DNA from: a virus
Lineage: Duplodnaviria; Heunggongvirae; Uroviricota; Caudoviricetes
Length of the DNA: 35,105 bases
Reading direction: 5' to 3' (one strand)
Virus record (IMG/VR): IMGVR_UViG_2711768044_000007
Location: 1-35,105 of that record
Positions 2,444-22,456 of the stretch are shown piece after piece. The notes under the pieces were generated by a model that ran no database searches, had not been told where the DNA came from, and was given only the letters and a program-made list of their open reading frames with translations. Each line of letters opens with the position of its first letter. The stretch's first letter is position 1. Position numbers and translations under genes: made by a program.

Positions 2444-3385
2444 GTGAATAATATGACCGATATTAACGATGTAATCAAGACCATTGATGAACTTATTGAT
2501 GGTGGTGTACTGACGCAGTATGCCATCGCCAGAGAGGCGGGAATTTCCGACGGTACATTATCGGCTTTCCGCAAGGGGAAATATAAAGGCGATAACGTCG
2601 CTGTGGCTGCTTCCCTGCGTTCCTGGTATGAGAACTGGAATAAACAAAGCGCACTGCCCGAGCCGCCGCAGTTTGTGGAAACGCAGACAGTCCATGAACT
2701 GCGCGCACTGTTTCAGGCGGTTCGCCTGATGGGCTGTATTAACGTCATCGTGGGCGTACCGGGTGTGGGTAAAACGGCCACGGCCCGTAATTACTGTCAG
2801 GAGCAACCGAACACCTGGATGATCACCCTGTCGCCCGCGCATTCCAGCGTCACGGAGTGTCTGCTGGAGCTGGCAGAGGAACTGGGGATTGATTACACCC
2901 GCGCGAACAAAGGGGCATTATCCCGCGCCATCCGCCGTCGCCTGATGGGAACGCGTGGACTGGTGATTGTGGATGAGGCGGATCATCTTGGTATTGACGG
3001 TCTGGAGCAACTCCGGGCAATCCAGGACGCCACGGGGATCGGGATGGTGCTTATTGGTAACCCGCGCGGACTGTTTAAAGGTGGACGCCGCGCCGTTGAT
3101 GATTTATCGCGCCTGTTCAGCCGTCTTGCCCGTACAAAACAACTTCGCAAGGCCAAAAAGGCGGATGTGCTGGCCATTGCCAGGGCATGGGGTATCAGTG
3201 GTGAGGCCGAGCTGGCTGTCATGCAGGCTATCGCTGAAAAGCCGGGAGCCTTACGTGTTCTGACGCATACGCTTAACCAGGCGTGGATCACCGCCAGCGG
3301 TGAAGGTGCGGCGCTGACAGAAAAACATATTAATGCGGCCTTTAAAGAGGTTTATACCAACCCTGAATTACTCTCACAGGTGTGA
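2444..3385 (+). CDS. B: MuB-like transposition ATPase (AAA+ target DNA activator)
   Basis: 313 aa; Walker A GVPGVGKT; motifs LPEPPQFVETQTV, VIVDEADHLG, KKADV..IA, EKPGALRVL closely parallel Mu B. Confidence 0.9.
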   Translation: MNNMTDINDVIKTIDELIDGGVLTQYAIAREAGISDGTLSAFRKGKYKGDNVAVAASLRSWYENWNKQSALPEPPQFVETQTVHELRALFQAVRLMGCINVIVGVPGVGKTATARNYCQEQPNTWMITLSPAHSSVTECLLELAEELGIDYTRANKGALSRAIRRRLMGTRGLVIVDEADHLGIDGLEQLRAIQDATGIGMVLIGNPRGLFKGGRRAVDDLSRLFSRLARTKQLRKAKKADVLAIARAWGISGEAELAVMQAIAEKPGALRVLTHTLNQAWITASGEGAALTEKHINAAFKEVYTNPELLSQV

Positions 3386-3609
3386 TTATGGCTGCATTTA
3401 ATATTCCTGATATTTACGGACGATTTTACCTGGTGAATTTCGATAACGTGAAAGTGATTTCACTGGCCGAAAATAAAGAATGTGGCGATTTACTCTTTGA
3501 ATTTAATGATCGCACCCGAATAGCAATATCGGCAGGACTTGATCGCGAAGGTGCGACAGACGTTTACAGCGGAATATGCCGTTCTGTTGGTGCGAAACAA
3601 GTCAGATAA
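3382..3609 (+). CDS. small early protein, positional analogue of Mu Kil (hypothetical)
   Basis: 75-aa ORF overlapping the B stop codon (start GTG 3382 or ATG 3388); same position and approximate size as Mu kil. No sequence-level confirmation possible here. Confidence 0.45.
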   Translation: MIMAAFNIPDIYGRFYLVNFDNVKVISLAENKECGDLLFEFNDRTRIAISAGLDREGATDVYSGICRSVGAKQVR

Positions 3610-3621
3610 ACGAGGTGTTAT

Positions 3622-4041
3622 ATGAATACGCAGATACAGCAGGAAATCCATGTTCTCCACAGCTTTCGAGAGTTTAACGACAATGACTGTGAGGTTCGTG
3701 ATTATATCTATGAATTGATGATCGGTGATGGTGTGTGTTTTCTGTATATAGACCTGTATCAGTGGTATGCAGACATGCAACTTGATTCCATCAGACGCCG
3801 TTTTAATGGTGAGTGCTTTAATGAGGACGTATGGGAAGGCCTGCGCTTTGGTTTTCTGATCACCGGTAATTATCGCCGGGGGTGGCGACGCGGTTACTCC
3901 ATCCTTCGGGCAATCATGCGTGGCAAAACCCGGAAAATTCCGGGGATGGATAAGGTTAATCGAGGTCTCCTGTCAGAACTGGCTGCATCGCGCATGAATC
4001 CATTACTGATACAACCGGAGTTCACCTATGAATTTGTTTGA
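3622..4041 (+). CDS. hypothetical early-region protein
   Basis: 139-aa ORF, GAGGTG RBS 6-8 nt upstream of ATG, co-oriented with early operon. Confidence 0.5.
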   Translation: MNTQIQQEIHVLHSFREFNDNDCEVRDYIYELMIGDGVCFLYIDLYQWYADMQLDSIRRRFNGECFNEDVWEGLRFGFLITGNYRRGWRRGYSILRAIMRGKTRKIPGMDKVNRGLLSELAASRMNPLLIQPEFTYEFV

Positions 4042-8834: not shown

Positions 8835-8866
8835 AAATCCCGCCACAGTGCGGGATTTCTTATTTT
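8835..8866 (+). terminator. intrinsic terminator-like hairpin after gemA
   Basis: AAATCCCGC-cacagt-GCGGGATTT (9-bp stem, 6-nt loop) followed by cttatttt. Confidence 0.6.
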
Positions 8867-20316: not shown

Positions 20317-20748
20317 ATGAATGAACATCACACTGTGGCAGCAACAGATGATTCAGGCCTTCAGGTCAGTGGTGACAGTCCTGTCACGGTTCTGGCAGAA
20401 GTGCGTTGCAGTCGTGCGCAGTTTCGTCGTGCGGGGTTCCTGTTCATGCGGGGACGCCAGCAGGTTGACGTCACCCCGGAGCAGCTTGCCCGACTGGAAG
20501 CGGAGCCATGCCTCACTGTACGAATACTACAGACGCCTGGTGATGATGCGGGAGCCGTGGCGGGTGTGGTTCATGCAGAGACCGGTGCAGATTTAGCTGA
20601 AGCCGAAGCCGAAGCCGAAGCCGAAGCCGAAGCCGAAGCCGAAGCCGAAGCCGAAGCCGAAGCCGAAGCCGAAGCCGAAGCCGGACAGGATGCTCCCCGG
20701 AAAAAGACCGGCAATAAAGCCAGACAGGAAAAAAAGGCGCGCGCATGA
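20317..20748 (+). CDS. hypothetical head-module protein with internal (Glu-Ala)n tract
   Basis: 143 aa; GGAGGG RBS; contains ~14 consecutive EA dipeptides encoded by a GCCGAA tandem repeat; basic C-terminal tail. Confidence 0.5.
   Translation: MNEHHTVAATDDSGLQVSGDSPVTVLAEVRCSRAQFRRAGFLFMRGRQQVDVTPEQLARLEAEPCLTVRILQTPGDDAGAVAGVVHAETGADLAEAEAEAEAEAEAEAEAEAEAEAEAEAEAGQDAPRKKTGNKARQEKKARA
20596..20685 (+). repeat. tandem hexanucleotide repeat (GCCGAA)~14-15 within coding sequence
   Basis: Perfect head-to-tail GCCGAA units visible directly in the sequence from about 20596 to 20685. Confidence 0.9.
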
Positions 20749-21164: not shown

Positions 21165-21718
21165 TTACGGAAACCGAACAGGCGTACATCGCCCGTATCC
21201 GTGAGTATTTCGGGAATGAACTGGTGTCAGTTGACACGCATCCCGGCGACTGGAGCGACAGTGTGCTGCGCACCATGCTGATTAGCGCCCCGGCGATCTA
21301 CGTTGCCTGGCTGGGTGCCGGTGAAGGGCGTACCCGTGGACGTCTGGTCAGCCACTGGGTGTTCTACGTCATCGGCGACATGCTCAATGGCCGTGAGGTC
21401 AGCCGTCCCGGACTTTATCAGATTGTGGCCCGCCTGATTACCGTGCTGGACGGTTTCAGGACAGAAAAAACCTCACCGCTTTACTTTGAAAAGGCGCTTA
21501 ACGGTTACACCGAAACGCAGGCAGACAGCGGTGCCGTGATGTACGCCCTGTATTTCTCATGCGAGGAAATGATCGACCCGCTGACGGATATCAGCTCGCT
21601 GGATGATTTCCTGCGCCATTACGAAACCTTTGTGGAGCCGCCCGGTACGTCGCCGTTTGAGGCACATATTCATCTTAAGGGTACAGGTGAAAACATGAAT
21701 CCCAACGAAGAGGTCTGA
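21161..21718 (+). CDS. Mu gp37-like protein (DUF1834-like)
   Basis: 185 aa, overlapping start; position. Confidence 0.55.
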   Translation: MITETEQAYIARIREYFGNELVSVDTHPGDWSDSVLRTMLISAPAIYVAWLGAGEGRTRGRLVSHWVFYVIGDMLNGREVSRPGLYQIVARLITVLDGFRTEKTSPLYFEKALNGYTETQADSGAVMYALYFSCEEMIDPLTDISSLDDFLRHYETFVEPPGTSPFEAHIHLKGTGENMNPNEEV

Positions 21719-21835
21719 CGATGGATAAACATCAGGATAATACGGCAGAAGCCATGGCGATGACTTCTGCCGGGAATCACAACTCATGGGTGGCATCCTG
21801 GCTGGTAAAGTCCCGTGCCGAATGCCTTCAGTTAA

Positions 21836-22102
21836 TTAGTGAGCTTGATTTGTCTGGTCGCTCTTCGTGGTCGTCACATACTCAAGCGATCCCAAAAGCA
21901 GGTTGACGCCATGAGCGATAGTTTTCTGGTTCTGTGCGAGTAAACCAGTGTGTTGCTGACGAAGTTTGTCCAGAAATTCATTCATGGACAGTGTTCCGTC
22001 CTGTTCCAGTTTCTGGATCAGAATATTCACCGCAATAGCTAACCCATTTACAAGGTCATGAGCGAACTGAATCTCTGGTGATGGTTGATTTTCTGATGAC
22101 AT
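21836..22102 (-). CDS. hypothetical protein, reverse-oriented moron inside the late operon (between gp37-like and gp38-like)
   Basis: 88-aa minus-strand ORF with strong SD (TAAGGAGTCTTT-ATG on the minus strand); region somewhat AT-richer; all Mu late genes are normally co-directional. Confidence 0.55.
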   Translation of the reverse strand: MSSENQPSPEIQFAHDLVNGLAIAVNILIQKLEQDGTLSMNEFLDKLRQQHTGLLAQNQKTIAHGVNLLLGSLEYVTTTKSDQTNQAH

Positions 22103-22177
22103 AAAGACTCCTTATGTTGGTGAAGAAACTATCAGAATGCCCGGTCAGGAAGCTCATCACAAGTACAAGGAGAGCAA

Positions 22178-22456
22178 GTGAAAACCATTTTTATTAAACC
22201 TGCGCCGGGATGCCTGATTCGCGATCCCGACACGATGAATCCGCTCTCACAGGACGGGGAAGAGAAACCCTTCACTCCGTTCTGGTGCCGCCGTCTTAAT
22301 GATGGCGACGTCATTGTGGTGGATAAAACGGCGGAGCCTGCCCCGGCTGCCACAACAGGTAATACCGGCGAGGCTGCAAAACCAGCGGGAGCGGCAGCAG
22401 AAAAACCTGCGGCGGCGGCTGAAAAACCCGCAGCATCAGATAAGGGGACGTCCTGA
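22178..22456 (+). CDS. Mu gp38-like small protein (DUF2635-like)
   Basis: GTG start with AAGGAG RBS; N-terminus MKTIFIKPAPGCLIRDPDTMNPL; Ala/Pro/Lys-rich C-terminus; precedes sheath. Confidence 0.55.
   Translation: MKTIFIKPAPGCLIRDPDTMNPLSQDGEEKPFTPFWCRRLNDGDVIVVDKTAEPAPAATTGNTGEAAKPAGAAAEKPAAAAEKPAASDKGTS

Follow-up and report, generated by a model that had tools for sequence, protein, structure and literature searches.

A small antisense cassette, very probably a moron, at the gp37/gp38 junction of an enterobacterial Mu-like prophage

The bor and lom genes of phage lambda are classic examples of morons. Under the definition of Juhala and Hendrix (phages HK97 and HK022), a moron is an extra gene lying between genes that are adjacent in relatives, with promoter-like and terminator-like signals and a deviant composition. 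The concept is cited in the description of Tab and anti-Tab, gp31 and gp30 of the Pseudomonas Mu-like phage JBD26 (Nat Commun 2024, PMC10884400). Tab has 83 residues and is encoded in the late operon, on its minus strand, with a promoter of its own; it is made by the prophage and acts through the tape measure protein of invading phages to stop the assembly of their tails. Anti-Tab is encoded on the plus strand with a 1-bp overlap with the upstream late gene; it is made from the late operon and binds Tab, so that the prophage can assemble its own particles. According to the authors, close relatives of JBD26 are the only phages with known homologues of Tab, and more small-protein systems of this kind are predicted to exist (PMC10884400). 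We describe here a 459-bp accessory cassette whose layout recalls both kinds of element. It lies in the late operon of virus record IMGVR_UViG_2711768044_000007 (positions 1 to 35,105; this whole stretch of 35,105 nucleotides is called the window), and it carries an antisense gene for a protein of 88 amino acids.

The cassette and its antisense gene

The window is a Mu-like prophage, with ner, transposase A and B, mor, lysozyme, portal, F, G, protease, gpT, gp36, gp37, DUF2635, sheath, tube, tape measure and baseplate genes. gp37 (PF08873, DUF1834) ends at 21718 and the DUF2635 gene opens with a GTG at 22178, leaving 459 bp between the two, directly ahead of the tail sheath gene. A first-pass annotation, made from the letters of the window, had pointed to a minus-strand open reading frame (ORF) of 88 codons in a segment of about 460 bp between co-directional late genes, and this is confirmed. 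The cassette is a self-contained insertion that separates gp37 from gp38 in an enterobacterial Mu-like prophage, and its main cargo is the 88-codon gene directed against the late operon. Its principal features are the following.

21719–22177, no strand assigned: accessory cassette, 459 bp, between the gp37 stop and the DUF2635 (gp38-like) start
21836–22102, minus strand: gene of the 88-residue protein, an ORF opening with ATG; acidic product (isoelectric point, pI, 5.3) with three predicted helices (residues 9–35, 40–56 and 60–86)
22108–22114, minus strand: Shine-Dalgarno (SD) sequence TAAGGAG, its last G separated from the ATG by 5 nt, as read from the sequence
22134–22162, minus strand: putative, conserved promoter-like element, TTGTGA (22162–22157), a 17-nt spacer and CATTCT (22139–22134)
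21743–21772, minus strand: terminator-like hairpin (inverted repeat I4, 92% complementary) of the minus-strand transcript, with 13-nt arms, a 4-nt loop and, after it, UAUUAUCCUGAUGUUUAUCC

The 88-codon ORF is almost certainly a real protein-coding gene, as judged from its pattern of conservation. Its product is annotated as 'hypothetical protein' by the Prokaryotic Genome Annotation Pipeline (PGAP; WP_053264784.1 and WP_047086396.1). An exhaustive phmmer search across 1.84 billion representative proteins returned only two true relative clusters (50% identity), one from E. coli and one from Salmonella, and no further relatives of the gene were found in GTDB species genomes, IMG/VR, JGI metagenomes, a phage collection or a plasmid collection. 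The E. coli cluster consists of five variants, each 88 residues long, 95–99% identical and intact across about 90 contigs. The Salmonella orthologue, P0006 of Salmonella enterica serovar Reading, also has 88 residues and is 44% identical over its full length without a gap (BLASTP E 9e-27; phmmer E 1.8e-15 against 1.84e9 proteins). Its gene occupies the same gp37/DUF2635 slot, in the same antisense orientation, in locus L018, a Mu-like prophage that has diverged from that of the window.

At the DNA level, identity between the two copies is 54%. In the 88-codon frame, the proportion of non-synonymous differences (pN) was 0.37 and that of synonymous differences (pS) was 0.75, the latter being saturated; differences by codon position were 39/26/57, a pattern seen in none of the other five frames. 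Among the E. coli haplotypes, four of seven substitutions in the gene were synonymous. The gap-free Salmonella orthologue and the coding-type substitution pattern therefore place the ORF beyond chance. It is very improbable that a chance or decaying ORF lies here in a junk insert: such a reading would agree with the failure to find homologues of known function and with the narrowness of the family, but it is contradicted by an orthologue that kept all its codons while synonymous sites saturated, by the intactness of all five E. coli variants, and by the conservation of the SD and of the promoter-like and terminator-like elements.

These signals were compared between the two lineages. The TAAGGAG motif had been noticed in the first-pass annotation with a spacing of 7 nt; the motif is there, whereas the spacing is 5 nt from the last G to the ATG, which is a counting difference. 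AAGGAG is kept in the Salmonella copy with the same spacing class. Further upstream, the window reads TTGTGA-17-CATTCT-31 nt-ATG and the Salmonella copy TTGTTA-18-CATTCT-28 nt-ATG, and the promoter-like regions of both copies share the identical 10-mer GGGCATTCTG, in a cassette that is otherwise about 55% identical. Three intergenic substitutions separate the E. coli variants, none of them in either hexamer or in the SD. At the other end of the gene, the hairpin is the dominant stem in the RNA fold; the U run that follows it is imperfect and a terminator scan does not flag it. The Salmonella copy has a different hairpin at the same place (GGGGG-A U8 A-CCCCC plus UUGAUUUUC). On the plus strand no U run follows the hairpin in either lineage, so late transcription should read through. 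We infer that the promoter-like and terminator-like elements of the minus strand are active.

The composition of the segment sets it apart from its surroundings. In 200-nt windows its GC content is 0.40–0.44, against 0.55–0.63 in the flanks; for the whole cassette it is 0.464, compared with 0.545 for the whole window. At third codon positions, GC content is 0.47 in the 88-codon gene versus 0.52–0.70 in the neighbouring late genes, and the Salmonella copy follows the same trend.

The cassette is rare among related prophages. The flanking prophage region was found in 229 of 5426 complete E. coli genomes, and the 459-bp segment (98–100% identity) in three, those of strains M1, M3 and SCU-171. It is missing from all 26 informative IMG/VR relatives, and from close Salmonella and Citrobacter relatives of the L018 backbone, the slot being empty in L050 and L051. 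As the first-pass annotation had proposed, synteny was checked at the gp37-gp38 junction: in insert-less relatives gp37 and DUF2635 are joined within 0–3 nt from stop to start. The minus-strand gene is conserved as a protein and is not a core component. The region is also mosaic, the identity between window and SCU-171 changing from segment to segment, with 98.0% in the cassette, 91–93% in gp36/gp37 to its left and 68–72% in DUF2635/sheath to its right.

Altogether, the cassette is very probably a moron, that is, an accessory and autonomously transcribed unit. The suggestion of a reverse-oriented moron in the late operon fits the absence from nearly all relatives, the deviant composition, and a gene with its own SD, promoter-like and terminator-like elements, as in the classic cases. 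It differs from these in that its product is an orphan and that its expression in the prophage is putative. It is a new orphan member of the moron class, a kind of element already known.

Two further features concern the edges of the cassette.

21632–21718, plus strand: variant 3' end of gp37 (last 29 codons), inherited together with the cassette
22167–22180, plus strand: fresh translation start of DUF2635 (AAGGAG, 5 nt, GTG at 22178), the right end of the cassette, read directly from the letters

The block that is unlike the insert-less relatives begins at about 21632, inside gp37, and extends to the DUF2635 start. Past this position, identity to the insert-less M18 falls from 0.88–0.98 to 0.68, while the insert-bearing SCU-171 is still about 95% identical there. 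An 11-nt direct repeat, CA[GA]GTGAAAAC, at 21684–21694 and 22175–22185 (491-nt spacing), flanks most of the exchanged block. It was considered as a target-site duplication and rejected, the left copy corresponding to ancestral G-E-N codons of gp37 that are found in insert-less relatives too. The repeat is probably coincidental, and it could have served as microhomology in recombination. At the right edge, the ATG of DUF2635 is coupled to the gp37 stop in insert-less relatives, and the cassette swaps this coupling for the new SD and GTG.

A last conserved feature lies between the hairpin and the stop codon of the gene.

21783–21805, no strand assigned: conserved 23-nt box CTCATGGGTGGCATCCTGGCTGG, between the hairpin and the 88-codon gene's stop

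Eighteen of its 23 nt are the same in the Salmonella copy, wobble positions included, at an identical distance from the stop codon. It has no match in Rfam, and its similarity favours no reading frame. Conservation at the nucleotide level in the antisense 3' untranslated region, the complementarity of the antisense RNA to late mRNA immediately ahead of the tail genes, and the replacement of gp37-DUF2635 translational coupling by a new SD and GTG start could all be accommodated by a self-regulatory element, in which the antisense transcript, the protein or both would tune the late expression or assembly of the phage itself, e.g. by silencing leaky tail genes in the lysogen, with other phages and the host left unaffected. 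We consider this improbable. More than 98% of related prophages manage without the cassette, and constraint at the protein level over all 88 codons would be needless for a role of the RNA alone. Long-range pairing of the box with the 5' coding region of DUF2635 was also computed, and dismissed as its energies were no better than those of other windows.

The 88-residue protein

The protein is hydrophilic, with a charge of about −4 and no membrane segment by hydropathy; the Salmonella orthologue has a pI of 5.6. AlphaFold2, run on a three-sequence alignment, predicted a three-helix bundle with a mean pLDDT (predicted local distance difference test) of 79 and a pTM (predicted template modelling score) of 0.60, and the fold matches were generic only. 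Neither this protein nor the 61-residue product of the plus-strand ORF discussed below had a match in Pfam, PHROGs, NCBIfam or PADLOC, and a comparison of the 88-residue protein with PDB sequence profiles gave no significant match. The function had been called unrecognisable from sequence; indeed, none of the sequence and fold methods recognises the protein.

Two apparent kinships were examined and rejected. A sub-threshold Y_phosphatase match (E 0.096), echoed by PDB profile matches to helices of protein tyrosine phosphatases (E 0.8–1.9), was judged to be due to chance. Distant phmmer matches, P0007 (1404 residues, 11 stretches) and P0008, were read as EF-hand repeat proteins of the eukaryotic type, with an E-value inflated by the repeats. 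The acidic or oxygen ligands by which an EF-hand binds calcium (loop positions 1, 3, 5 and 12) are not kept, position 1 being K31 and the Salmonella copy having L, D, R and D, and the Pfam EF-hand model has no match in the protein.

As catalytic, DNA-binding and membrane signatures are absent, the protein most likely acts by binding another protein. Its divergence between the lineages (44% identity, versus 50–75% for the adjoining structural proteins) is fast, which fits a conflict gene. It is possible, on the other hand, that the cassette is a moron with a single gene and some other benefit to the lysogen, for instance as the gene of a small connector or regulator with an effect on host physiology, or of an exclusion factor with no antidote. 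For a connector, the candidate comparison is YmgB/AriR (PDB 2oxl), a small helical regulator-connector of E. coli. Its identity to the 88-residue protein is 10% and the YmgB/AriR sequence profile of Pfam has no match; moreover, three-helix bundles resemble many unrelated folds at the Z of a match of this type.

The plus-strand ORF and the comparison with Tab/anti-Tab

In the JBD26 record, atab (13377–13628, plus strand, 83 residues) and tab (13582–13833, minus strand, 83 residues) are convergent, with a 3' overlap of 47 nt. Their GC content is below that of the phage, a terminator-like hairpin for tab lies inside atab, and Tab has a pI of 4.7. The cassette has a comparable small ORF on its plus strand.

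21721–21906, plus strand: ORF of 61 codons, candidate partner gene, starting 2 nt past the gp37 stop and overlapping the 3' end of the 88-codon gene by 71 nt

The two layouts agree feature by feature. Each is part of a Mu-like prophage's late operon, with a small acidic product encoded on the minus strand (83 versus 88 residues) and a promoter of its own, which is putative here. In both, a convergent small plus-strand ORF is found at the stop of the upstream late gene (1-nt overlap in JBD26, +2 nt in the window, 8-nt overlap in Salmonella), and the 3' ends of the two ORFs overlap, by 47 nt in JBD26 against 71 nt in the window and 59 nt in Salmonella. The hairpin of the antisense gene falls inside the partner ORF, GC content is lower than in the phage, the element measures about 460–490 bp, and it is present in some close relatives only.

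The first-pass annotation had seen the plus-strand ORF as a mere rival of the minus-strand gene. Of the two it is the minus-strand ORF that is conserved as a protein, yet the plus-strand ORF recurs in the Salmonella copy and may belong to the cassette. The Salmonella counterpart, 55 codons long, keeps the relative frame, which is the only one open in both lineages; its overlap is 8 nt with gp37 and 59 nt with the 88-codon gene. A codon alignment of the two ORFs requires one in-frame indel of 6 nt and shows one Arg kept as CGT versus AGA. The sequence GAGGT-7/8 nt-ATG at the head of the ORF has its homologue in insert-less relatives, in the initiation region of the gene next after gp37. Because that region is used by the next late gene there, the plus-strand ORF is probably translated. 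Some gene callers and submitters annotate it (e.g. CAD5757956.1). The start region that it inherited is that of a hydrophobic peptide ORF of 31–36 codons found in relatives and described below.

Two other lines of coding evidence were discarded. The shared MDK start carries no weight, since ATGG[GA]TAAA is the ancestral junction and start region and occurs in insert-less relatives too. A six-frame comparison upstream of the 88-codon gene's stop revealed similarity at the nucleotide level and did not single out the frame of the plus-strand ORF. In the overlap, the tail of this ORF gathers non-synonymous changes where the 88-codon frame has synonymous ones. It may be part of the cassette as a partner gene, the coding evidence for it being weak.

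Were the cassette a single-gene moron, the plus-strand ORF would be a by-product of insertion just past an existing start codon, and might have stayed open to limit Rho-dependent polarity over 459 untranslated nt. Against this reading, the ORF is open in both lineages, has the same relative frame in each, and differs between them by an in-frame 6-nt indel.

We tentatively propose, by analogy with Tab, that the 88-residue protein is a prophage-expressed, protein-binding inhibitor acting in phage-phage conflict. In the lysogen the late promoters would be silent, and the weak sigma-70-type promoter would give a short monocistronic antisense transcript ending at the hairpin, from which a small, acidic, cytoplasmic three-helix protein would be made. 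It would inhibit competing phages by binding another protein. Induction would let late transcription run across the whole cassette, as the hairpin lacks a U tract on the plus strand, and the antisense gene would be dampened by collision and by antisense pairing. In this scheme, the 61-residue product of the plus-strand ORF would serve as antidote: made only when the late operon is expressed, it would neutralise the 88-residue protein while the prophage assembles its own virions. Such a two-gene logic of defence and antidote is the more doubtful part of the proposal. If it held, enterobacterial Mu-like prophages would have a second, sequence-unrelated version of the Tab/anti-Tab principle, with a lysogen protein that sabotages a late step of competitors (virion assembly or another step involving structural proteins) and a late antidote that spares the phage's own particles, and the gp37|gp38 junction would be a hotspot where small conflict genes are swapped; this extension is speculative.

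Several observations weigh against this proposal. Neither cassette protein has any sequence similarity to its JBD26 counterpart (BLASTP, no alignment at E ≤ 100; hhalign probability <1%), and neither product matches PADLOC. The slots are not the same, tab and atab lying between the two terminase genes, small and large, of JBD26 whereas the cassette lies at gp37|gp38, the junction of head-completion and tail genes. PGAP does not call the plus-strand ORF, which is similar between the lineages over 13 residues only (SWVxxWLxxxRxE). Conservation of this core is seen in the nucleotides themselves, wobble positions among them, with similar scores in other frames, so that it could be an RNA or DNA element; and as the ORF owes its start codon to the ancestral junction, it may be translated as a by-product. 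Lastly, the promoter-like element agrees with the consensus at about 7 of 12 positions and stays under the threshold of a consensus scan in both cassettes. The same scan is also blank upstream of JBD26 tab, a gene described as having its own promoter, and is therefore insensitive. Apart from these points, the partner ORF has 83 codons in JBD26 versus 61 and 55, and is putative, in the cassettes; defence and antidote activities have been shown for Tab, while the cassette is known from its sequence. The cassette thus falls outside the Tab family, and its mode of action may be Tab-like.

In Mu-like phages of Pseudomonas, the late region includes anti-CRISPR loci, which are followed by an aca gene of the helix-turn-helix (HTH) type. 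These loci resemble the cassette in consisting of small accessory proteins within the late region, and they had been put forward as its analogue in the first-pass annotation. In JBD26, the stretch that separates the virion morphogenesis gene from the head genes after it contains three small co-directional genes and one 38-codon minus-strand ORF, and we take it to be the position of the anti-CRISPR loci. The fit is poor, as these small genes run with the late operon whereas the 88-codon gene is antisense to it; antisense tab of the same phage is the closer precedent. No HTH (aca-like) gene is found in the cassette or adjoining it. An anti-defence protein (anti-CRISPR-like, anti-restriction-like or another inhibitor), made constitutively from its own promoter and ready on infection to shield the phage or prophage from host immunity, is accordingly unlikely, even if a small, acidic, helical orphan protein that diverges fast in a Mu-like phage would suit such a role. 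Antisense orientation is typical of lysogen-expressed morons.

The gp37/gp38 junction and other variable sites

Relatives hold differing cargo at the gp37|gp38 junction, which makes it a hotspot of small accessory genes within the phage group. The slot contains a hydrophobic peptide ORF of 31–36 codons in Citrobacter L046 (about 3537–3632), Serratia L054 (2539–2634) and Salmonella L052 and L053 (L052, about 2530–2640). The consensus of the peptide is MGKL[LM]L.IAG.LA.AGN.AWPWFLLIG.., its ORF overlaps the ends of both neighbours, and the peptide may represent a small membrane protein that has escaped annotation in the late operon. In L049, a prophage of Salmonella diarizonae, the slot holds the hydrophobic peptide ORF (about 2540–2643) plus a Cys-rich ORF of 60 codons with a CPCC motif (2640–2822, plus strand), which is co-directional with the late genes and represents a third kind of cargo. 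Similarity of this ORF to the plus-strand ORF or to any other ORF of the cassette was looked for and was not significant.

The exact 88-codon gene is also present on truncated Mu-like remnants adjoining lambdoid lysis genes (L012, L014, L015 and L016). They retain gpT-gp36-gp37-cassette-DUF2635, most of the tail genes being deleted. Two records of Shiga toxin (Stx)-converting phages, LC727881.1 and LC727895.1, annotate an inserted Mu-like region; they match gp36-gp37 only, and not the cassette.

Three other sites were observed to vary or to be annotated in an unusual way. A hexanucleotide tandem repeat (AGCCGA x 14.8, at 20595–20683 in the ORF 20317–20748) encodes an (AE)n run in a FluMu_N/HI1506-related protein, whose length in otherwise near-identical prophages is 117–155 residues in the E. 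coli loci and 170 in Salmonella L018. On the minus strand, an ORF of 113 codons with no Pfam match (8865–9206) lies between the gp16-family gene and mor. The 1-kb region around it is covered over at least 80% in two of 231 matching complete E. coli genomes (M3 among the matches listed), most of the others matching the first 268 nt only, and it looks like a second accessory antisense gene. In L006, an E. coli AST198 prophage, PGAP annotates a 'tRNA-OTHER' at 441–520 on the minus strand, between the minor head protein gene (F) and the virion morphogenesis gene; in the window, a search with ARAGORN detected no tRNA at all.

New functions in phage defence and in the modification of hosts are known to come from prophage morons, the majority of which are small orphan proteins. 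The present cassette is clean and compact, it resides in the genetically tractable E. coli strains M1, M3 and SCU-171, and it comes with insert-less sister prophages as natural controls and with a diverged Salmonella orthologue. Should it prove Tab-like, the combination of an assembly-blocking defence and an antidote from the late operon would be a design that recurs beyond Pseudomonas, and that can be found by gene layout and not by sequence searches. If it is otherwise, the 88-residue protein would still be an uncharacterised, putatively lysogen-expressed factor, carried as well on Mu-like remnants inside lambdoid prophages.

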